This document shows positions 15,357 to 26,319 of a stretch of DNA of 32,189 nt, piece by piece. The notes beneath the pieces were generated by a model. That model was given only the letters and a program-made list of their open reading frames with translations, made no database searches and was not told the DNA's origin. The stretch spans positions 1 through 32,189 of the IMG/VR virus record IMGVR_UViG_3300049142_000054; one strand, written 5' to 3'. Origin of the DNA: a virus. Lineage: Duplodnaviria > Caudoviricetes. The translations under genes and the position numbers were made by a program. Position 1 is the first letter of the stretch. Each line of letters opens with the position of its first letter.

Positions 15357-15733
15357 CTGGAGCGTGGGGGGTAGCGGCCGCGATCGTCGGCTCAGTACTG
15401 GGCGCCCTCGCCCTGCTGGGCAGCGGCTTGTTCGCGGCCCGGGCAACGCGTGCGGCGGCACGCACAACGGCAGAAGCGCAGCGCGCGTCAACTGCCGCTG
15501 CAGCAGAACCCGCCCAACGCCAGGCGGACCTGACCGCGTTCAAGGAAATCCGCGACGAGCTGAAGGCGAAGATCGAACGGCAGGACCGCCGCATCGACAG
15601 CCTCTCCGCCCTGGTACTCGCCTACTCCTGGACGGTGGACCGGCTCATCAGCCGCATGCGGGAGGCCCGCGTCACCCCAGATCCGGAGGACATCCACGAA
15701 CGCGTGCGCGAACACATGCGAACCGGCGCCTGA
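15353..15733 (+). CDS. Lysis-cassette protein with one N-terminal TM and a coiled coil (126 aa)
   Basis: GGGAG RBS, GTG 15353 overlapping the upstream TGA; hydrophobic residues ~4-28, then FKEIRDELKAKIERQDRRIDSL. Confidence 0.8.
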   Translation: MTGAWGVAAAIVGSVLGALALLGSGLFAARATRAAARTTAEAQRASTAAAAEPAQRQADLTAFKEIRDELKAKIERQDRRIDSLSALVLAYSWTVDRLISRMREARVTPDPEDIHERVREHMRTGA

Positions 15734-15779
15734 CGAAAGCGGCCCCGCTCTCCTCCGGGAGAGCGGGGCCGCTTTCGTC
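15732..15779. terminator. Strong intrinsic terminator closing the late operon
   Basis: 22-bp perfect inverted repeat GACGAAAGCGGCCCCGCTCTCC-TCCG-GGAGAGCGGGGCCGCTTTCGTC. Confidence 0.9.
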
Positions 15780-15853
15780 GTTCTTGGGCGCCCTGTTGCC
15801 AGCGGGACGCTTAGGGCTACCGTGCGCCCCACATCTACCGAAGGGTGAAGACC

Positions 15854-16588
15854 ATGACCCGACGCCTCTGGAAGGTCGGCACCAACAGCGGCAACGATGG
15901 GTGCCCAACGCTGTACGAGATTCCCGGCACGGACCAGTACGTCGTCCAGGGCGACCGCGTCACCGACTCCGGCGAACTCGGCCAGCTCGAGAACCTCACG
16001 GCCGAGGAAGACGCCGTCGTCGTCCCACGTGAGCTGCTCGCCAACTTCAGCCCCAAGGAGCCCGTGCACGTGCCACAGCCCATCTCGTTCGCCGAGTTCG
16101 GCGGCATGTTCACCACACTCCGGCACTCCGCTTGGAGGCTGGAGACGCGCCGCCGCTACGCCGAAGACGAGATGACCGAGACCTACCGCCAGTTCGCCGC
16201 GGGCGAGCCCGTCACGTGGGACCTGAATGACCCGTGGTGCACCAACCGCCGTGAGCAGTCCGCGCTCGGCAAACGGTTCGAGCGGGTACGGATCCTCGAC
16301 GAGCCGCCCACCCTCGGCCAGCGGTACCTCCTCGACAACGCTCGCCGCAACAGCCAGGCCGGCGAGGACATCCGCGTCCTCACCCGCAGCAAGGCCGACG
16401 AACTCCAGCTGCCGCGCGAAGACTTCTGGCTGTTCGACGCCCGCGTCGTAGCCCTGCTCCACTTCGACGACGCCGACCAGATGACCGGCGTTGAACTCAT
16501 CACCAACCCCGTCGAGGTCCTCCGCTACGCGCAGGCCCGCGAGGCCGCATGGCACCATGCAGTGCCATACGACCAGGCCGGGCGGTAA
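15854..16588 (+). CDS. DUF6879-like protein with a fused small N-terminal domain (SGxxGCPTLY type)
   Basis: AWRLETRRRY, GKRFERVRILDEPPT.GQRYLL, N..AGEDIR.L.R, DFWLFD motifs; start ATG 15854 or GTG 15845; TACCGT candidate -10 at 15818-15823. Confidence 0.85.
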   Translation: MTRRLWKVGTNSGNDGCPTLYEIPGTDQYVVQGDRVTDSGELGQLENLTAEEDAVVVPRELLANFSPKEPVHVPQPISFAEFGGMFTTLRHSAWRLETRRRYAEDEMTETYRQFAAGEPVTWDLNDPWCTNRREQSALGKRFERVRILDEPPTLGQRYLLDNARRNSQAGEDIRVLTRSKADELQLPREDFWLFDARVVALLHFDDADQMTGVELITNPVEVLRYAQAREAAWHHAVPYDQAGR

Positions 16589-16597
16589 CTTCGCTGT

Positions 16598-17437
16598 GTG
16601 ACCACGGACTTCCAGCAAGCCCGCGAGGCCCTCGGCCGAAGGCTCCGTGAGCTGCGCGACGGGAAGACTCAGCGGGAACTGGCGGCCGTACTGGGGTGGC
16701 CGCAGGCAAAGGTGTCCAAGCTGGAGACCGGGCGCCAGACGGCCACCCCCGAAGACCTCATGGCGTGGGCCCAGGCAACAGAGCAGCCCGCGACCACCGA
16801 GGAACTCCTCGCCCGGCGCCAGGGCCTGGAGACCCACGTCCGCTCGTGGCGGCGCCAGCTGCGCGCCGGCCACCGCCCGGTGCAGGACGTCCTCACCGTC
16901 GAGTACGAGCAGTCAACCGTGCTGCGGGCGTGGCAGGGCGCCATGGTCGTCGGGATCCTGCAGACCCCGGACTACGCCCGGCACGTGTTCGCTCGGATGG
17001 CTGAGCTGCAGCAGTCGCCGCGCGACATCGAGGACGCCGTGCGGGCCCGTGTGCGCCGCCAGGACCTCCTGTACCAGCCCGGCCGGGAGTTCCACGTCCT
17101 CATGTGGGAGGCCGCCCTACTCGCGGGCGTGGCCCCGCCAGACGTCCTCGCGGCCCAGCTGGATCGGCTCGCGAGCGTCATCGGCCTGGACACCGTCCGT
17201 CTCGGCATCATCCCCCTCAGCGCGCACCTCAGCGTCCCGCCCGGCAATGGCTTTTGGCTGTACGACGACCGGCTGACGATCGTCGAGGAGTGGCATGCCG
17301 AGCTGTGGTTGAACGACGCCGACAGCGTGGCCCTGTACCGGCGGGTGTGGGAGACGCTGGACAAGTCGGCGGTGTACGGCACCCATGCGCGGCGCCTGAT
17401 CGGCCGGGCCCGCGCCCACTTCACTGACCTCACCTGA
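16598..17437 (+). CDS. XRE helix-turn-helix regulator with DUF5753 domain (Scr1/WhiJ-like)
   Basis: 279 aa; LGRRLRELR...TQRELAAVLGWPQAKVSKLETG HTH; VVGILQTPDYAR, RVRRQDLL, EAAL, QLDRL, LGIIP motifs. Confidence 0.9.
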   Translation: MTTDFQQAREALGRRLRELRDGKTQRELAAVLGWPQAKVSKLETGRQTATPEDLMAWAQATEQPATTEELLARRQGLETHVRSWRRQLRAGHRPVQDVLTVEYEQSTVLRAWQGAMVVGILQTPDYARHVFARMAELQQSPRDIEDAVRARVRRQDLLYQPGREFHVLMWEAALLAGVAPPDVLAAQLDRLASVIGLDTVRLGIIPLSAHLSVPPGNGFWLYDDRLTIVEEWHAELWLNDADSVALYRRVWETLDKSAVYGTHARRLIGRARAHFTDLT

Positions 17438-17467
17438 GCATCACCGCGAATCGCCTCAGGTTACGGG

Positions 17468-17517
17468 CGAATATTCGAGAATCACCGTGCCCGCTGATTC
17501 TCCGGTCTCCCTACCGT
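17468..17517 (+). promoter_or_regulatory. Operator-like palindromes and -10 element upstream of the 17525 gene
   Basis: CGAATATTCG (17468-17477), GAGAATCA-N10-TGATTCTC (17477-17502), TACCGT (17512-17517) 7 nt before ATG 17525. Confidence 0.6.
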
Positions 17518-17524
17518 GCTGGTC

Positions 17525-17989
17525 ATGGCCTTACCGATGCGACTCGCTGAGCTGTACGAGGCCGGGGACGCGTGGCTCGCCGACTGCTCCGCGCACCCGG
17601 ACCTCGTACGCCAGGCATGGGAGTTCGACGCCCTCGCCCCGATACGGTCCGGCGCCCGCTGGCTCGCCGCCGAATCGTGGCTCGTCACCGGCATGCAGGC
17701 CCTCAGCCGCATCCGCGAGGAGCACCGCGGCCCCGTGCTCGCCGATCCTCTCCTTGACCGGGCGTGGTGGCTCGTGCCCCTCGATGCCGCCGAGGAACTG
17801 GCAGATGTACGCCCTATAGCGGTGCGCCCGGCCGGCACGGTGCTGCGCTGCCCGCCCACCGGCTGGCAGGCGTGCGGACGCTTCTGGCTGCACCGGCCCG
17901 ACGGCTCCGGCCAACTCATCGATCCTGCCGTTCTCGCCGCCGCGCTCGGACCCGGCGGCCACCGACTCTCCACGGAGGCGCGAGCATGA
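17525..17989 (+). CDS. Degenerate prim-pol (AEP)-like Streptomyces protein, TTA at codon 3 (154 aa)
   Basis: WLA...P...W, GPVLAD...AWWLVP, GTVLRCPP, WLHRPDGSGQLIDP..LAAAL motifs; ATG GCC TTA at 17525-17533; start uncertain (17516, 17525 or 17537). Confidence 0.7.
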   Translation: MALPMRLAELYEAGDAWLADCSAHPDLVRQAWEFDALAPIRSGARWLAAESWLVTGMQALSRIREEHRGPVLADPLLDRAWWLVPLDAAEELADVRPIAVRPAGTVLRCPPTGWQACGRFWLHRPDGSGQLIDPAVLAAALGPGGHRLSTEARA

Positions 17990-18390
17990 CGACCAAGACC
18001 CGGGAACTGGTCACTGCCAGCGAGCCCGACCTGAGCAAGCTCGGCGAGCAGATCATCCGCGCCGCTGAGACGGTCGGCGACCGCGCGGCGGCGCAGGCCC
18101 TCGTCGAGGAAGGGAGCATCTTCGCCCGCCAGAACGTGCGTTCCGCTCTGATCGTTGACAGCAAGAAGGGCGCACAGGCTTGGTGGGAGGGCCTGTCCGG
18201 GCGGCAGTACAGCCTCGGCCTGGACGAGAACCAGCGGCGCTTCCTCGGCCTGGTGCTGTCGCTGGTGGGCATCGGGCACGTCACCATCGCAGCCGTGCGC
18301 GGCCTCGACGAGCGGCGCCTGCGCATCATCCTGCGGGCCATCCTGCAGCTCGCGGAGAACGACAGCCTCGCAGTCGGTACCCGCGTCTGA
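17986..18390 (+). CDS. Hypothetical helical protein (134 aa)
   Basis: GGAGG RBS; ATGA overlap with the upstream gene; 3' part of the 17764..18390 ORF. Confidence 0.75.
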   Translation: MTTKTRELVTASEPDLSKLGEQIIRAAETVGDRAAAQALVEEGSIFARQNVRSALIVDSKKGAQAWWEGLSGRQYSLGLDENQRRFLGLVLSLVGIGHVTIAAVRGLDERRLRIILRAILQLAENDSLAVGTRV

Positions 18391-18419
18391 CTTCGCAGCC
18401 ACGCCAGCGGCTGCGAGGA

Positions 18420-18462
18420 GCTGAGCGGCCGTCCCCGTCCCCCGCGGGGACGGCCGCTCAGC
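18420..18462. terminator. Bidirectional terminator between convergent genes
   Basis: 18-bp perfect inverted repeat GCTGAGCGGCCGTCCCCG-N7-CGGGGACGGCCGCTCAGC. Confidence 0.85.
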
Positions 18463-18685
18463 GAACGAGCTCAGCGAGCGGTACGTCGAGGGCGCGGGCG
18501 ATACGGATCAGGTGCACGTACTTGATCCCGGACCCAGCCTCGACACGTTGGAGCGTCGACCGTCCGAGGCCGGCGCGGTCGGCGAGTTTCTCCTGAGTGA
18601 GATTGGCGTGCTCGCGCACCTCGCGGATGCGGTCGCCCTGCTGCTGGCAGGCGAGGCGGATCCATTCGGGCTGGTCGTCGGGCAC
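18458..18685 (-). CDS. Small XRE-family HTH regulator (75 aa)
   Basis: GDRIREVREHANLTQEKLADRAGLGRSTLQRVEAG...IARALDVPLAELV; GTG 18685 preferred over 18724 because CAGCGT lies 6 nt upstream. Confidence 0.88.
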   Translation of the reverse strand: MPDDQPEWIRLACQQQGDRIREVREHANLTQEKLADRAGLGRSTLQRVEAGSGIKYVHLIRIARALDVPLAELVR

Positions 18686-19050
18686 CCGTCCACGCTGGTT
18701 CCCCAGGTGATCACCTGTCAGCACCAGAAGTGACGCATTCTTTGATCATGACGCTGAAGGAAGCGGAGCAGTAGGCCAAGACCCCCGCCGACGGCCGACG
18801 CGCTGACGCGCCGCCGACGGGTGAGACCCGCTGACGGTGGAACAGGGGCAGGCGGTGCCCCGGAGAGGCCACCGGAAGCGGGAGGGTGGCCGTCCCCCGT
18901 GGGGCGGCCACCCACTCCCTTGCACGCAGGGCGGAGTCGAACGGCCCCCAGCTAGGACTTTGGTCCGGCTGGGGGCCACTCTGCGTTTTCCCTGACTCTC
19001 GGGCCAGCGACGGGCCAGCAAACGATCATGAGGCTTACCCAAAACGGACA

Positions 19051-19085
19051 GGACCCCAGCTCATTCCTGCTCTGAGCTGGGGTCC
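19051..19085 (-). terminator. Hairpin just downstream of the tRNA-derived core
   Basis: GGACCCCAGCTCA-N9-TGAGCTGGGGTCC; placed to terminate the reconstituted tRNA after integration. Confidence 0.75.
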
Positions 19086-19090
19086 AGTAG

Positions 19091-19135
19091 GTAGGCCCTG
19101 TGGGACTCGAACCCACAACCAATGGATTAAAAGTC
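19091..19135 (-). tRNA. 3' half of tRNA-Lys(UUU): att core, not a functional tRNA
   Basis: Minus strand GACTTTTAATCCATTGGTTGTGGGTTCGAGTCCCACAGGGCCTAC: anticodon loop CTTTTAA, T arm GTGGG-TTCGAGT-CCCAC, 3' acceptor strand; no D arm or 5' acceptor strand. Confidence 0.9.
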
Positions 19136-19306
19136 TGATGAGCCCCCATGGCAGCGCACCCCGCTGAATTCAGCTCACCCCATTGCACCCCAAGGAGTGC
19201 AGCTCAGCGGCCATTCGCTGTCGTGCCCGGCTCGCCCTTCACCCCGTCTCACCCCACCGCGTATCGCCGTCTTGCGTGGCGTTCGGGCCAGCACGGGGCC
19301 AGCAAG

Positions 19307-19338
19307 AAGGGCCCCTGACCCGCAGGTCAGAGGCCCTT
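19307..19338 (-). terminator. Hairpin downstream of integrase
   Basis: AAGGGCCCCTGACC-CGCA-GGTCAGAGGCCCTT (one mismatch). Confidence 0.65.
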
Positions 19339-19376
19339 TGCCTGTCCCTCGATTCTACGCCCAGGCCTAGCCGTTG

Positions 19377-21014
19377 TCAGTGCTGGCCCGTACTGTCGGG
19401 GTCATCCATATCAGCGTCTGCTGGCTGCGTCGCTGAGCCCGGCCCCTGCTCCGGTACAGCGCCCGGTGCAGGGGCCGCTCCACGCCCGCGCCGAGCGCGC
19501 GGCACGGCGGCCGCCGCACGCTCAGTCAGGTCCTGCTCGTACTCCTGGAACAGGCTCATATACGTGTCGGCGGTCAGCACGATCGTGGAGTGCCGCAGCT
19601 TCTTGCTGGCGTCGTCGATGTCCCCCCCGCCCGCCTTCACCAGCGCGGCCGCACCGTGCCGCAGGTCGCGCAGGTTGATGGGCGGAAGGTCGGCGGCCTC
19701 GACCAGCCGCTTGAATTCCTTGCTCACGATGTCGGGGTGCAGCCAGCTGCCGTCCTCCGTGGTGAAGACCTTGCCGGTGTCCGTCCACGTCTTGCCGGCA
19801 GCCAGGCGCGCGTCGCGTTCGGCGTCCTGGCGGGCACGATGCTCTCGCAGCACGGACACGGTCTCCCGGTCGAGCATCACCGCCGACATGGACGAGTCCG
19901 TCTTGGGGGCCGTCTCGATGGGTGTCCAGCCGTCCACCACGATCTCCGTCAGGACATCGATCCGCGGCGGGTTGATGTCCAAGTGAACGTTCCCCCAGTC
20001 CGCTCCTACGCCCTCGCCGCGGCGCAGGCCGTGATGCGCGACCAGGTGGAAGAAGGCATAAAGCCGGGAGGTCTCGGCCTCGTCCAGGAAAGCTCCCAGC
20101 TGCTCGGGAGTCCACACCATGACCGGGCTGGGAACCGCTCCGGTCTCACGCCATCGGGCGATGCGCTCGGCCGTCCACAGGAGTCCCTTGGGGCGCGCGC
20201 TGGATCCCAGCTCAACATGCGCGGCCGCGTTGAAGGTGATGAGCTGCTGGGCGATGGCCGCATTCAGCGCCGTGCGCAGGGTGCGGCGGATCGCGTGTCG
20301 CGTGGCCGGCCCGTTCGCCTTCCGGTACGGCTTCATCTCGGCCAACTTGGCGCGCTCGGCGGCCAGGCGCTCACGCTCCTTGGCCGGCGGCCTTCCCGGC
20401 CTGGTCCACTTCGCCCGCGATTCCTGCTCGCGCCGTGCCTCATTCTCGGCGCGGATCACGTCGGATGCGTCGGCGATCGCGTCGAACATCTCCTGCACGT
20501 GCCCGACGTTCAGCCGGTCGAGACGGTAGTGCCCGATGCGCGGCTTCAGGTGGACCTTGATGTGGGAGCGGTAGCCCGCGTTCGTCGTAGTGCGCGTCTT
20601 CTTGGCGGCCATCCACCGGTCGAGCCATTCGGCCACCGTGGTTGTGCCATCGAGCGGCACACCAACGCCGAGGCGCCTCTGCACCTCGGAAGCCTGGGGG
20701 ATGTCTGCGCGGCGCCGGGAGATGTCGGCGAGTAGATCTCCCACACGCTGCTGTTCAGTTGGGTCATCACCGGGGAGGTCGAGGATGGCCTGCAGGCGGG
20801 AGAGGTCGCCTTGGGCCTCCGTGACTTGCTTGTACCCGGTACGCCGGAAGGTCCGGCGCTTCCCCTCGGCGTCCGGCGGCAACTCCTGGCGGAGCGCGAC
20901 GGCACCGTGGGACTTCTTCTTCAGCTGCGGGCAGGCGTTGCCCAGCAGCCTGCCGTCACCTCCGCGGCACTCGCATCGGCGGTAGATGCTTCCTGCGCGG
21001 CGCGCTGACGGCAT
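19377..21014 (-). CDS. int: Tyrosine integrase
   Basis: 545 aa; GLRRGE (R), PKT (K), RDLRH, LRH, ADTY (Y) catalytic motifs; N-terminal RRCEC...C arm-binding region; adjacent to att core. Confidence 0.95.
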   Translation of the reverse strand: MPSARRAGSIYRRCECRGGDGRLLGNACPQLKKKSHGAVALRQELPPDAEGKRRTFRRTGYKQVTEAQGDLSRLQAILDLPGDDPTEQQRVGDLLADISRRRADIPQASEVQRRLGVGVPLDGTTTVAEWLDRWMAAKKTRTTTNAGYRSHIKVHLKPRIGHYRLDRLNVGHVQEMFDAIADASDVIRAENEARREQESRAKWTRPGRPPAKERERLAAERAKLAEMKPYRKANGPATRHAIRRTLRTALNAAIAQQLITFNAAAHVELGSSARPKGLLWTAERIARWRETGAVPSPVMVWTPEQLGAFLDEAETSRLYAFFHLVAHHGLRRGEGVGADWGNVHLDINPPRIDVLTEIVVDGWTPIETAPKTDSSMSAVMLDRETVSVLREHRARQDAERDARLAAGKTWTDTGKVFTTEDGSWLHPDIVSKEFKRLVEAADLPPINLRDLRHGAAALVKAGGGDIDDASKKLRHSTIVLTADTYMSLFQEYEQDLTERAAAAVPRARRGRGAAPAPGAVPEQGPGSATQPADADMDDPDSTGQH

Positions 21015-21423: not shown

Positions 21424-21852
21424 TTAGTCGCTGCCGTCGCCCGGTGGCACCAGCGTGTCGATGAGCCGCAGCAGCCTCTCCCTCTGATCGGCGGGGAGTT
21501 GGTCGAGTTTGTGCACGTATGCCTTGGCTTCCGACGACCCACTGACTAGCGGATCCACTCCATGGAACTGACTGCCGGCCGCATCCTGGAGCGTTTCCAC
21601 GGGCAGCTCACAGGCCGCCGCGAGTGCACAGAGTTCCTCATAAACCGGGGGGGTGACCGGTTCTCCCTGCTCCAGGCGGTAGACGTACCCGCGCGTCACG
21701 TGCGTCCCCGTGACTGGATCAACAGCCCGTTCGGCGAATGCCTTGAGGCCGATGTTCAGCTCCGCGCGGCGACTCCGGATGAGGTCCGCGAACTGGGTCC
21801 GCTGTTCAGGCCTGCGCACGTCTTCGCGCGGCTGAGGATCATTTGAGGCCAT
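21424..21852 (-). CDS. Immunity repressor, XRE family (CI-like)
   Basis: FADLIRSRRAELNIGLKAFAERA...VTRGYVYRLEQG...LAAACELPVETLQ; divergent from a Cro-like gene; same strand as integrase. Confidence 0.85.
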   Translation of the reverse strand: MASNDPQPREDVRRPEQRTQFADLIRSRRAELNIGLKAFAERAVDPVTGTHVTRGYVYRLEQGEPVTPPVYEELCALAAACELPVETLQDAAGSQFHGVDPLVSGSSEAKAYVHKLDQLPADQRERLLRLIDTLVPPGDGSD

Positions 21853-23240: not shown

Positions 23241-23467
23241 CTGCCCCTACGGCGCAGGCCCGGGACACCCCCGGCCGTACGCCCACCCCCCAGCAGATCA
23301 ACGGCCTGCTCGTCATCGACGCGAAGAACATCCGCGCTCACTACGAGTGCTACCGCCCGGGGTGTCTGAAGCCCCGTGAAGAACCGGTCAAGCCCTCCGC
23401 CATCAGGGCGTTCATCGACGGGATTAAGGCCCGCCACCTGAGCCAGTACCACGGGGAGAAGCGTTGA
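23237..23467 (+). CDS. Small protein with possible C2H2-type zinc site (76 aa)
   Basis: YECYRPGC...RHLSQYH; coupled at both ends by 4-nt overlaps. Confidence 0.7.
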   Translation: MTAPTAQARDTPGRTPTPQQINGLLVIDAKNIRAHYECYRPGCLKPREEPVKPSAIRAFIDGIKARHLSQYHGEKR

Positions 23468-26319
23468 CCGACTCACAGATTCCGGACCTCCGGGCCGTCG
23501 CCCGCGAGCTGCACGACGCCGGTCTGTGCCCGCTCCCCGTCCGGGCCGACGGGACCAAGGCCCCGGACGTCCGCAGCTGGACCCAGTACAAGATCAGCCG
23601 GTCCACCCCTGAGGAACACGACCGTTGGTTTGGAGACGGCCGCCGAACCGGAATCGGCATCGTTACCGGCGCCGTGTCCGGCAACGTCGAACTGATCGAG
23701 TTCGAGGGCCTGGCCGTCCAGGAGGGGCTCCTCGACAAGGTCACCGAGCTGGCCAACAACAGCGGGCTCGGCGACATCTGGCAGGCCGTCACGAGCGGCT
23801 GGGCTGACGAGTCCCCATCCGGCGGCGTGCACTACAAGGTCGTCGTCCAGGGCAGGCCCGCCGCCGCGAACAAGAAGCTCGCGCAGCGGCTCGCACGGGA
23901 AGACGAGTACACCCCGGAAGAACGTCAGCGCATCGCTGAGAAGCCGACCGCGAAGATCGTGCGGACGCTGATCGAGACGCGTGGCGAGGGCGGGTTCGTC
24001 GTCATCGCCCCGTCGCACGGTTCCACGCATCTCAGTGGCAGGCCCTACGTCCGGCTCGCTGGTGGCCCCACCACAATGGCTGTCCTCGACGCGGAGGAAC
24101 TCGACGCGGTCTACGTCCTCTGCCAGGCGTTCGACGCGATGCCCACGGCCGAGTCCCCGAAGACGGCGCCGCGCCCTGCACCGCCCCGGCCCGACGGAAG
24201 TCTGCGGCCCGGCGATGACTTCGAGGCCCAGGCCACGTGGGAGGAGATCCTGCGGGGTGTCTTCCGTCCGCTGAACACCCGGGGCAACGAGACCTACTGG
24301 GGGTGGGCCGACGGCGTCGGCGGTGTGAAGGCCACTACCGGGCGCGACGAGCACGACCGCCTGTTCGTCTTCGCCACCGGATCAGAGTTCGAACCCGAGG
24401 TTCCGTACAGCAAGTTCGGCGCCTATGCCCTGCTGAACCACGGCGGCGACCACAAGACCGCCGCCAGGGAGCTGGCCCGCATCGGCTACGGCAGTCGGCA
24501 CCTCGCCTCGGTCGGCGCTCACCCCGTCGCACCTGCACGCCAGCCCTCGCACCCGACCGACACCACCCCGGCCGCCGACGAGCAGGAGCAGGAGGATCCG
24601 GCCTCGGCGGGAGACGCAACCCCGGAAGGCTTCGACTACGCCAGCACCTTCGACCTCCCGGCGTCGGTCCGCACTCCCTACGACTATCGGGTCACCGGGC
24701 GAGGCGTTGAGGTGCTCAGCACCAGCGGCGAGAACTGGCTCCGAGTCACGTTCGCGCCGCTGGTCATCACAGCAACGTTCGAGGACCCCGAAGGTGACCA
24801 GTACGTCGAACTGTCGTGGATCGACCGCAGCCTCGGGCGGCCCCGCCGGATCTCCCGGATCGTCAGCCGCGAGACCGCGAAGCGCGGACGCAAGCTGATC
24901 GAAACCCTCGGCTCAGCCGGTCTCCCCGCCGTCGAGGGCGACGCCCGCGCCGTCGAAAAGTGGCTCGCCGAGTTCGAGGCTGGCAACGTCGGGCGCATTC
25001 CGTCCGAGCAGCTGGCCCGCTGGCTGGGGTGGCAGGACGACGGCACGTTCGTCAGCTCGCCCGAGGACGGCATCAAGGTCGATGTCCCGTTCGAGGAGCA
25101 GCGCGGTCCGGCCCGTGCGCACGCCAGGAAGGGGACGCTGGAGGGCTGGAAGGAGACCGTCGCCCAGCTGGCCGGCTTCCCGGTGCCACGCGTCGCGGTC
25201 GCGGCCGCGCTCGCCGCTCCCCTGCTCAAGCCCCTCGGCCTGAACAGCTTCACCCTGGACATCTCCAGCCGGTCCACCAAGGGCAAGACGACTGCCCTGC
25301 AGTGCGCGCTCAGCGTGTGGGCAGATCCGTCCGAGCACGCCAGCGCTATGTCGAACTGGCGCACCACGCTGTACGCCATTGAGAAGCGGCTGAACCTGGT
25401 GCGGGGGATCGTCACGGTCTTCGACGAGACCATGGCCGTCACAGACGACAACCTCATTGACGAGGTGCTCTACCAGCTCCCGATGAACCACGGGAAGGCA
25501 CGGTCGGGCGGCGCGTTCGGCAACATGCTGCCCTGGGAGACCATCCTCCTGTCTTCTGGCGAGCGGCCAGCGCTGAGCTTCACGACCAGCCAGGGTGCGG
25601 CGGCCCGCATCCTCGGCACGACGATCGCCCCCTTCGGCGACAACGGCGGCGCGGTCGCGGCCGCGGCCCGGGAAGGCGTCCTGGCCCATCACGGGCACGC
25701 CGGCCCCGAGTTCGTCCAGTACATCCTCAGTGGCCTCGCCCACCCGAACGGCCGCGAGGTGCTGAAGCAGAAGCACCGCGCGCTGGTGGACGAGTTCCGC
25801 GGCAGTGGCGACATGACGAATCGGCGCGCGCCGATGGTCGCCGCCCTGGTGCTCGCTGAGACGTTGGCGTGCGGCATCGGGCTGCTGCCATACGAGTCCC
25901 TGGACCACGACGTGTGGCGCGGCCTGTTCACCGCGCACAACCCGACCGACAACCGGCCCGAGATGGCGCTGGATGTCCTCCGGGAGTACGTCGCGGGCCA
26001 CGCCCACGAGCTGTTCAGCGCGTCCCGGGCGGCCCTCGGGGAGCGCCCGCCCTACTCGGGGTGGCTGGGCGTCATCTCGGCGAAGAACGGCGTCCAGACG
26101 GTCGCCCTGTTGCCTGAGCGGGTCCGCAAGATCCTGGCCGAGGCCGGATACTCCCTCGACGCGGTCGTGGGCAGCTGGGTCGACGCCGGGTATCTGGAGA
26201 CGCTCAAGAGCCAGCGCCCGCCGCACCTGGTGCCCCGTCGCTTCGACGGCGCCCGGGCAAAGTGCCTCGCGTTCACCCCCGAGGGCATGCCCTTCGGCGA
26301 GCAGGACGAGGCGGCATGA
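23464..26319 (+). CDS. Bifunctional primase/polymerase fused to DUF927-type helicase/ATPase
   Basis: 951 aa, TTG start after GGGGAG; PLPVRADGTKAP, GIGIVTG, SPSGGVHY, IETRGEGGFVVIAPS prim-pol motifs; LGWQ, Walker A STKGKTT, Walker B VFDE, SSGE, HHGHAG. Confidence 0.9.
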   Translation: MTDSQIPDLRAVARELHDAGLCPLPVRADGTKAPDVRSWTQYKISRSTPEEHDRWFGDGRRTGIGIVTGAVSGNVELIEFEGLAVQEGLLDKVTELANNSGLGDIWQAVTSGWADESPSGGVHYKVVVQGRPAAANKKLAQRLAREDEYTPEERQRIAEKPTAKIVRTLIETRGEGGFVVIAPSHGSTHLSGRPYVRLAGGPTTMAVLDAEELDAVYVLCQAFDAMPTAESPKTAPRPAPPRPDGSLRPGDDFEAQATWEEILRGVFRPLNTRGNETYWGWADGVGGVKATTGRDEHDRLFVFATGSEFEPEVPYSKFGAYALLNHGGDHKTAARELARIGYGSRHLASVGAHPVAPARQPSHPTDTTPAADEQEQEDPASAGDATPEGFDYASTFDLPASVRTPYDYRVTGRGVEVLSTSGENWLRVTFAPLVITATFEDPEGDQYVELSWIDRSLGRPRRISRIVSRETAKRGRKLIETLGSAGLPAVEGDARAVEKWLAEFEAGNVGRIPSEQLARWLGWQDDGTFVSSPEDGIKVDVPFEEQRGPARAHARKGTLEGWKETVAQLAGFPVPRVAVAAALAAPLLKPLGLNSFTLDISSRSTKGKTTALQCALSVWADPSEHASAMSNWRTTLYAIEKRLNLVRGIVTVFDETMAVTDDNLIDEVLYQLPMNHGKARSGGAFGNMLPWETILLSSGERPALSFTTSQGAAARILGTTIAPFGDNGGAVAAAAREGVLAHHGHAGPEFVQYILSGLAHPNGREVLKQKHRALVDEFRGSGDMTNRRAPMVAALVLAETLACGIGLLPYESLDHDVWRGLFTAHNPTDNRPEMALDVLREYVAGHAHELFSASRAALGERPPYSGWLGVISAKNGVQTVALLPERVRKILAEAGYSLDAVVGSWVDAGYLETLKSQRPPHLVPRRFDGARAKCLAFTPEGMPFGEQDEAA

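Follow-up and report, generated by a model that had tools for sequence, protein, structure and literature searches.

Between the lysis genes and the tyrosine integrase gene of a temperate Streptomyces phage (Caudoviricetes; IMG/VR record IMGVR_UViG_3300049142_000054, of which the 32,189-base stretch analysed here is called the window) lies a cassette of four genes that is real, selected, widespread and mobile, and that is of the WhiJ/BldB/IosA type rather than a new kind of system. Its open reading frames occupy, in the same orientation, positions 15854-16588, 16598-17437, 17525-17989 and 17986-18390, as described in a sequence-only reading of this DNA; the combination, for which no described function was known there, is less unfamiliar than stated, given its parallels to the studied iosA-whiJ9-bldB9 locus. 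In Streptomyces venezuelae, the leaderless gene iosA is activated by WhiJ9, a protein that binds direct repeats of 10 bp, and overexpression of iosA blocks sporulation (PMC10294661). We propose, with a probability of roughly 0.4, that the cassette is a mobile switch of the WhiJ type, in which gene 2 would activate genes 3 and 4 and the output would act as a brake on sporulation.

A regulator and its putative partner

Genes 1 and 2 are a linked regulatory pair, as anticipated: among the best 30 gene-1-anchored loci, gene 2 comes next in 29. The product of gene 1 (15854..16588, plus strand) consists of a ~68-amino-acid N-terminal domain of no known family and the expected DUF6879 domain (E 2.5e-52), which has a phospholipase-D (PLD)/Nuc/TrmB-like fold; the fold search covered residues 71-241. 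The gene-2 product (16598..17437, plus strand) combines an N-terminal XRE helix-turn-helix (HTH) domain (HTH_31, E 1.5e-10) with a C-terminal DUF5753 domain (E 1.9e-37), which is the WhiJ-like architecture and again what had been proposed; it scores 77.6 bits against the 350-bit cut-off of the Sco1979 equivalog. A weak relationship links DUF6879 with DUF5753 (P 1e-4), and the HxK(x)4D (HKD) motif is absent from both: gene 1 reads RED-FWLFD, with an invariant Asp at the position where the Lys would stand, and gene 2 reads GNG-FWLYD. Complex prediction for the two proteins gave a score of 0.00, which weighs neither way. A literature search for DUF5753 or DUF6879 gave three papers, none of which mentions DUF6879.

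Predicted operator boxes follow the recognition helix

The spacer between genes 2 and 3 contains a predicted operator array of five boxes (17438..17502, plus strand): GCATC at 17438, GAATC at 17448, GAATA at 17469, GAATC at 17479 and, inverted, GATTC at 17496. The palindrome GAGAATCA-N10-TGATTCTC (17477-17502), previously taken for a dedicated element before genes 3 and 4, is present but is merely a portion of this array. Since the motif was picked after inspection, a shuffle test of the boxes in the window's spacer is not counted as evidence. From 45 co-oriented loci, five near-duplicate or frameshifted ones were left out. In 34 of the remaining 40, a -10 hexamer stands 6-7 nt before the gene-3 ATG, and in 33 of these 34 the spacer, with its five phased boxes, measures 85-87 nt; the other six loci have either an 8-nt spacing (L040, L058, L060) or another layout (L036, L054, L055). 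The window itself has the predicted -10 TACCGT (17512..17517, plus strand) 7 nt before the ATG, consistent with a leaderless transcript; a consensus -35 is missing from this promoter, P3, whose -35 region is overlapped by box 5.

The two upstream promoters are similarly preserved. A predicted -10 TAACTT (16586..16591, plus strand), overlapping the gene-1 stop, would give a leaderless gene-2 transcript, and most co-oriented relatives have TAnnnT 6-7 nt before the gene-2 GTG (exceptions: L024, L036, L037, L054, L055 and L056). Predicted promoter P1 of gene 1 (TTGCCA-16 nt-TACCGT; 15796..15823, plus strand, with TACCGT at 15818) occurs in this form in 9/9 loci of the window's clade and in 0/32 others. 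It is free of boxes throughout that clade (9/9), whereas 31 of the 32 other loci have two to four boxes there, as expected for feedback through the partner. The -10 elements at 15818, 16586 and 17512 were thus correctly recognized from the sequence: the hexamers exist and their position is kept in relatives. None of the three promoters was called by a sigma-70 scan, so that conservation is the basis of their prediction.

Box type and recognition helix correspond in three ways: helix WQxSKVSR goes with CAAT/CAAC boxes (24 loci), WPQ(A/S)KVSK with GAAT boxes (eight loci, the window among them) and WP(P/A)SKVSK with GAAA boxes (two loci). This agreement was found in all of the first 34 loci and was kept in 23/23 parsable loci among 25 further ones (16, 4 and 3, respectively), of which one repeats L020 and two appear to be near-identical copies of loci already used. 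Box type requires a single change on the gene-2 tree (100/97) and seven changes on the gene-3 tree, where the shuffled mean is 7.5 (43 rows); the boxes therefore stay linked to the regulator through exchanges of gene 3. Gene 2 probably binds the boxes and controls genes 3 and 4, as this covariation suggests. The features that distinguish the iosA-whiJ9 type, a leaderless target and phased repeats adjoining the regulator, are seen here at the level of sequence. A divergent variant also exists (L016, L032, L034, L067, L150), in which genes 1 and 2 point away from the outputs, the repeats are of GTTCTC type, the helix reads WPHSKVYK and an internal gene-2 promoter is missing.

Remote homology of gene 3 to IosA

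The link to host development suggested earlier for the cassette finds support in gene 3 (17525..17989, plus strand), through its homology to IosA. The operator oligonucleotide of PMC10294661, used to locate iosA orthologues, matched 17 of 401 genomes; five of the eight loci taken gave proteins of 135-148 amino acids with primer matches, the S. venezuelae protein itself not being among them. The gene-3 profile was built in one iteration seeded only from gene 3 and holds 101 sequences, namely gene 3 and 100 chosen by length and coverage from 150 of 208 matches. Aligned to the IosA profile, it gives 97.7% in HHalign (E 1.4e-12, 114 columns), and the five IosA orthologues score 47.6-50.5 bits on it, compared with at most 8.9 bits for reversed or shuffled decoys. 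By these profile comparisons, gene 3 is a remote homologue of IosA, not an orthologue.

The best structural matches of the gene-3 model are bifunctional Prim-Pol domains (PF09250; NrS-1, pRN1 ORF904), and five of 81 family members scanned match PF09250 in sequence. Compared with these enzymes, gene 3 is short (154 amino acids), has no helicase and has other residues in place of the catalytic DxD/E and His motifs, the aligned positions reading LAAES and AWWL in what is an approximate alignment to true prim-pols. Gene 3 and IosA both appear to be catalytically dead prim-pol domains. Foldseek with the gene-3 model gave no match at E 0.001 in PDB or BFVD, and PDB sequence searches with profiles of genes 1, 3 and 4 gave nothing below E 0.1. 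The IosA study reports no structural relative of the protein (PMC10294661), and our literature search found no work that combines any three of IosA, primase, prim-pol and BldB. In two of the 81 family members (P0359, P0401), an AbaA-type HATPase_c_2 domain occurs as a natural fusion with the IosA/gene-3-like domain; AbaA6 and IosA are reported to act together (PMC10294661). Among the cassette proteins no AbaA-like HATPase_c gene was found, and such genes stand beside some relatives (L128, L152).

Gene 3 had further been described as TTA-gated. The TTA is real and is codon 3 in the window (17531-17533). An in-frame TTA makes a gene bldA-dependent, and as the ATG at 17525 is backed by the conserved leaderless promoter, the window's gene-3 allele should therefore depend on bldA. 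Gating is, however, a trait of this allele, not a design feature of the system: only eight of 76 gene-3 copies contain TTA (5/54 and 3/22), three of them at codon 3, and the window and L013 are close alleles. The rate nevertheless exceeds the background of 8/381, which is probably an underestimate (binomial P 0.0002 at 2.1%, 0.04 at 5%). TTA is reportedly raised in some whiJ-cluster genes as well (PMC4255298).

Proposed mechanism and its weight

These elements could work together in the following manner. The gene-2 regulator would bind the five phased boxes and switch on the leaderless operon of genes 3 and 4, by analogy with WhiJ9 and in keeping with a P3 that has box 5 in place of a consensus -35. 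Gene 1 would take the role of the BldB/DUF397 partner and keep gene 2 in check up to the arrival of a signal; the contact would probably be between the PLD-like domain of gene 1 and the DUF5753 domain of gene 2, which are related. The IosA-like product of gene 3 would then slow sporulation of the host in the lysogen, acting on development as IosA does. Activation by gene 2 appears somewhat more probable than repression, on the precedent of WhiJ9, and a developmental output of genes 3 and 4 is a tentative proposal modelled on IosA. In its widest form, the idea would be that temperate phages and conjugative elements of Streptomyces carry a signal-responsive switch made of two dead phospholipase-D domains, by which an IosA-like, dead prim-pol protein is induced and sporulation arrested, and that regulator-operator alleles are reassorted separately from those of the output, so that mobile elements can reprogramme the development of their hosts; as a whole, this idea is rather doubtful.

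Several observations weigh against the proposed mechanism. The IosA phenotype comes from overexpression, and WhiJ9 has its sites 113 bp upstream at a locus of divergent arrangement (PMC10294661), whereas the cassette is co-oriented with a box at -35, an arrangement that also fits repression. The helix-box covariation comprises only three or four independent clades. Before iteration, the direct comparison of the gene-3 and IosA profiles was not significant (P 0.07-0.21), and in view of this and of the remoteness of the homology, shared function does not follow. A member of the gene-3 family lies within 1.5 kb in only 10 of the best 30 gene-1-anchored loci, so that the switch drives other outputs too. 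Finally, the N-terminal domain of gene 1 could not be identified as DUF397: hhalign gave P 0.13-0.15, 37 N-domain sequences contained no Pfam DUF397 match and a deeper local profile was not significant. This domain reads CPT and QGD where DUF397 has its hallmark motifs CxE and RDS (PMC7159879). On the DUF397 hidden Markov model it scores slightly higher than shuffles (median -0.2 versus -1.8 bits), the Atlas gave no usable match, and four strands and a short helix appear in the model of this domain, with a pLDDT (predicted local distance difference test) of 45-66 in that part; the DUF397 fold has four strands and a terminal helix.

Exchange of the output genes

Genes 3 and 4 are exchanged much faster than the flanking sequence. 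A near-identical phage (L001) shares 92-100% identity with the window in genes 1 and 2 and 60-79% over 17501-18200. Together with their own promoter and operator, both judged from sequence, this exchangeability supports the earlier assignment of genes 3 and 4 as the output. Gene 4 (17986..18390, plus strand) encodes a basic 134-amino-acid protein that belongs to no known family, and its slot can be filled by several alternative genes. Relationship to gene 3, IosA or DUF6415 as a paralogue found no support, and a DUF6075 assignment, suggested by a single Atlas row (0.90, with the family assigned to 10% of members), was not confirmed by Pfam on 41 members. In many loci small CxxC proteins of 66 and 68 amino acids replace gene 4 (L035:8447-8644, L060:8626-8829 and relatives); in others, DUF6415 proteins or a second gene-3 paralogue occupy the slot. 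Some non-phage loci have methyltransferase, CYTH, radical SAM and ATP-grasp genes after the cassette (L019:9258-10492, L023:7863-9545, L027:8951-10626, L018:9326-10273).

Such rapid exchange, which is also seen in the trees, would also suit infection-triggered defence or exclusion, in which gene 2 represses genes 3 and 4, gene 1 relieves this repression on sensing a signal, and a superinfecting phage is then blocked or aborted by genes 3 and 4. The slot between lysis genes and attP, the cassette's own promoters and the overlap of box 5 with the -35 region agree with this possibility. Superinfection defence, which had been offered as an example of the cassette's function, nevertheless found no direct evidence: in PADLOC 2.0, genes 1, 3 and 4 have no match and genes 2 and 5 (a neighbouring XRE gene, see below) give generic HTH matches only; the HKD motif is missing from gene 1, as are the catalytic motifs of prim-pols from gene 3; and IosA, the only homologue that has been studied, is subject to activation and acts on sporulation. 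We regard defence as unlikely.

Distribution among mobile elements and chromosomes

Viral and genome scans, with repeated contigs removed, gave 53 gene-3 loci. Genes 1 and 2 lie co-oriented upstream in 44 of them, are divergent in four and absent from five; gene 4 is present in 24 and a gene-5 homologue follows the cassette in 19. The expectation that genes 1 to 3 would be conserved together and gene 4 variable is thereby met. Of 121 sampled Streptomyces genomes, 51 have matches to gene 1, 16 to gene 3 and six to gene 4, and genes 1 and 2 adjoin 19 of the 22 gene-3 loci found there. Around 32 genome loci, phage genes were nearby in seven, an FtsK/TraB-like gene in seven (a label that a weak family match backed in one of three tested) and a relaxase in two, while 16 had no marker among the scanned proteins. 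A gene-1 homologue occurs in 99 plasmid records, and one inspected plasmid has all four genes. The presence of the cassette in phages, conjugative elements, plasmids and chromosomes means that the module is not phage-specific. Among 50,697 annotated phages, gene 3 had no match and gene 1 a single one, in Streptomyces phage Kromp. For prophage Samy (PMC11302927), considered as a source of expression data, the supplementary files searched contain no DUF6879, DUF5753 or DUF397 term; nine of the 21 files lay outside this search and may bear on the point.

This breadth could also mean that the cassette is selfish or nearly neutral cargo: it would regulate itself and pass from one mobile element to another, perhaps through addiction of the toxin-antitoxin kind, without any phage-specific benefit. 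One chromosome has seven loci with a small gene, DUF6879 and XRE-DUF5753, the gene-1 matches in genomes and plasmids are numerous, and frameshifted or truncated copies exist (L023, L043, L119, L125). The strict conservation of spacer, boxes and promoter and the same slot in distant phages, including Kromp, imply selection, however, and fourteen XRE/DUF397 pairs of S. coelicolor did not act as toxin-antitoxin systems (PMC10364602), making this explanation quite unlikely.

Position of the cassette in the phage

The window contains, in addition to the cassette, an HK97-type capsid gene, the lysis genes, a likely attP and the integrase, and the slot between lysis genes and attP had been correctly identified. 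The likely attP core (19090..19135, minus strand), read by eye, resembles the 3' half of tRNA-Lys, which suggests integration at that tRNA; ARAGORN and Rfam made no call for this likeness, and Rfam over 15500-19500 yielded sub-threshold matches only. Two hairpins, both perfect as reported earlier, flank the cassette. Hairpin 1 (22 bp; 15732..15779, arms 15732-15753/15758-15779, plus strand) sits directly 3' of the last lysis-region gene and is a likely terminator of the late/lysis operon; at its place, hairpins of at least 12 bp occur mainly in phage-type relatives. Hairpin 2 (18 bp; 18420..18462, arms 18420-18437/18445-18462) lies between convergent genes 4 and 5 and is likely to be a bidirectional terminator common to them. 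Of the terminator features, a T-rich tail is found on hairpin 1 but not on hairpin 2. With one hairpin explained by the late operon and the other shared by convergent genes, insulation of the cassette is plausibly a by-product, and the notion of dedicated insulation is not upheld. The extent of four genes needs a similar qualification: the four are real, but a fifth, encoding a stand-alone XRE HTH protein (18458..18724, minus strand; HTH_3, E 5.5e-15), has its 3' end inside hairpin 2. Its homologue takes the same place in Kromp (gp35).

A large replication protein of the window (23464-26319) starts like the Prim-Pol protein of L019 and has a Cch-like helicase match, so that the phage would carry both a full and a dead prim-pol domain. 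This start, the prim-pol-like fold of gene 3 and the conjugative elements among the carriers are compatible with gene 3 being a replication decoy that disturbs prim-pol replicases arriving with related phages or conjugative elements, an improbable alternative. Control of lysis and lysogeny, with gene 2 or the outputs feeding into induction, is suggested by the adjoining attP, integrase and extra XRE gene, but is very improbable, as box-like 7-mers elsewhere in the window are single (three sites), the phage has a separate repressor-like gene (21424-21852) and the cassette is found without phage genes.

Significance and comparison with known systems

The mechanism of WhiJ/BldB-type clusters and the role of IosA are open questions of Streptomyces development. 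To these, the cassette contributes the suggestion that IosA is a dead prim-pol domain, a three-way correspondence of helix to operator and the placement of the switch, together with a homologue of a sporulation inhibitor, on phages. If genes 3 and 4 do affect sporulation, prophages would have a route to manipulate host development. This significance is limited, the module being common on chromosomes and plasmids and its phage-borne developmental output a proposal from homology.

Among systems known in other contexts, the TrmB/Nuc/Zucchini proteins of the PLD superfamily differ from gene 1 in having the HxK(x)4D motif. In Kromp (gp29-35; MH744420; L114:4005-7408), a small gene, DUF6879 and XRE-DUF5753 likewise occupy the interval from the lysis genes to the integrase, and a stand-alone HTH gene comes after them; gene 1 is split there, the layout is divergent and the outputs are others, with no homologue of gene 3 or gene 4. 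Kromp is thus a cultured phage with the switch half, annotated and unstudied; its gp33 has a TTA at codon 3. The whiJ/bldB/abaA clusters and XRE-DUF397 pairs (SCO4542-4544; Scr1/Scr2; PMC4255298, PMC10364602) share with the cassette the regulator family, many paralogues per genome and sporadic TTA in an output gene, whereas the cassette lacks DUF397 and the AbaA-type ATPase and falls below the Sco1979 equivalog cut-off. Closest is the iosA-whiJ9-bldB9 locus of S. venezuelae (PMC10294661). Both loci have an XRE-DUF5753 regulator with boxes phased by 9-10 bp beside it, a leaderless target, homologous in the two, a small partner gene or domain and separate promoters for the pair. In contrast to that locus, the cassette has an unclassified small domain with DUF6879 as partner instead of DUF397, is co-oriented rather than divergent (four of 53 relatives are divergent), has boxes that reach -35 and, besides residing on phages and other mobile elements, includes a second output gene.

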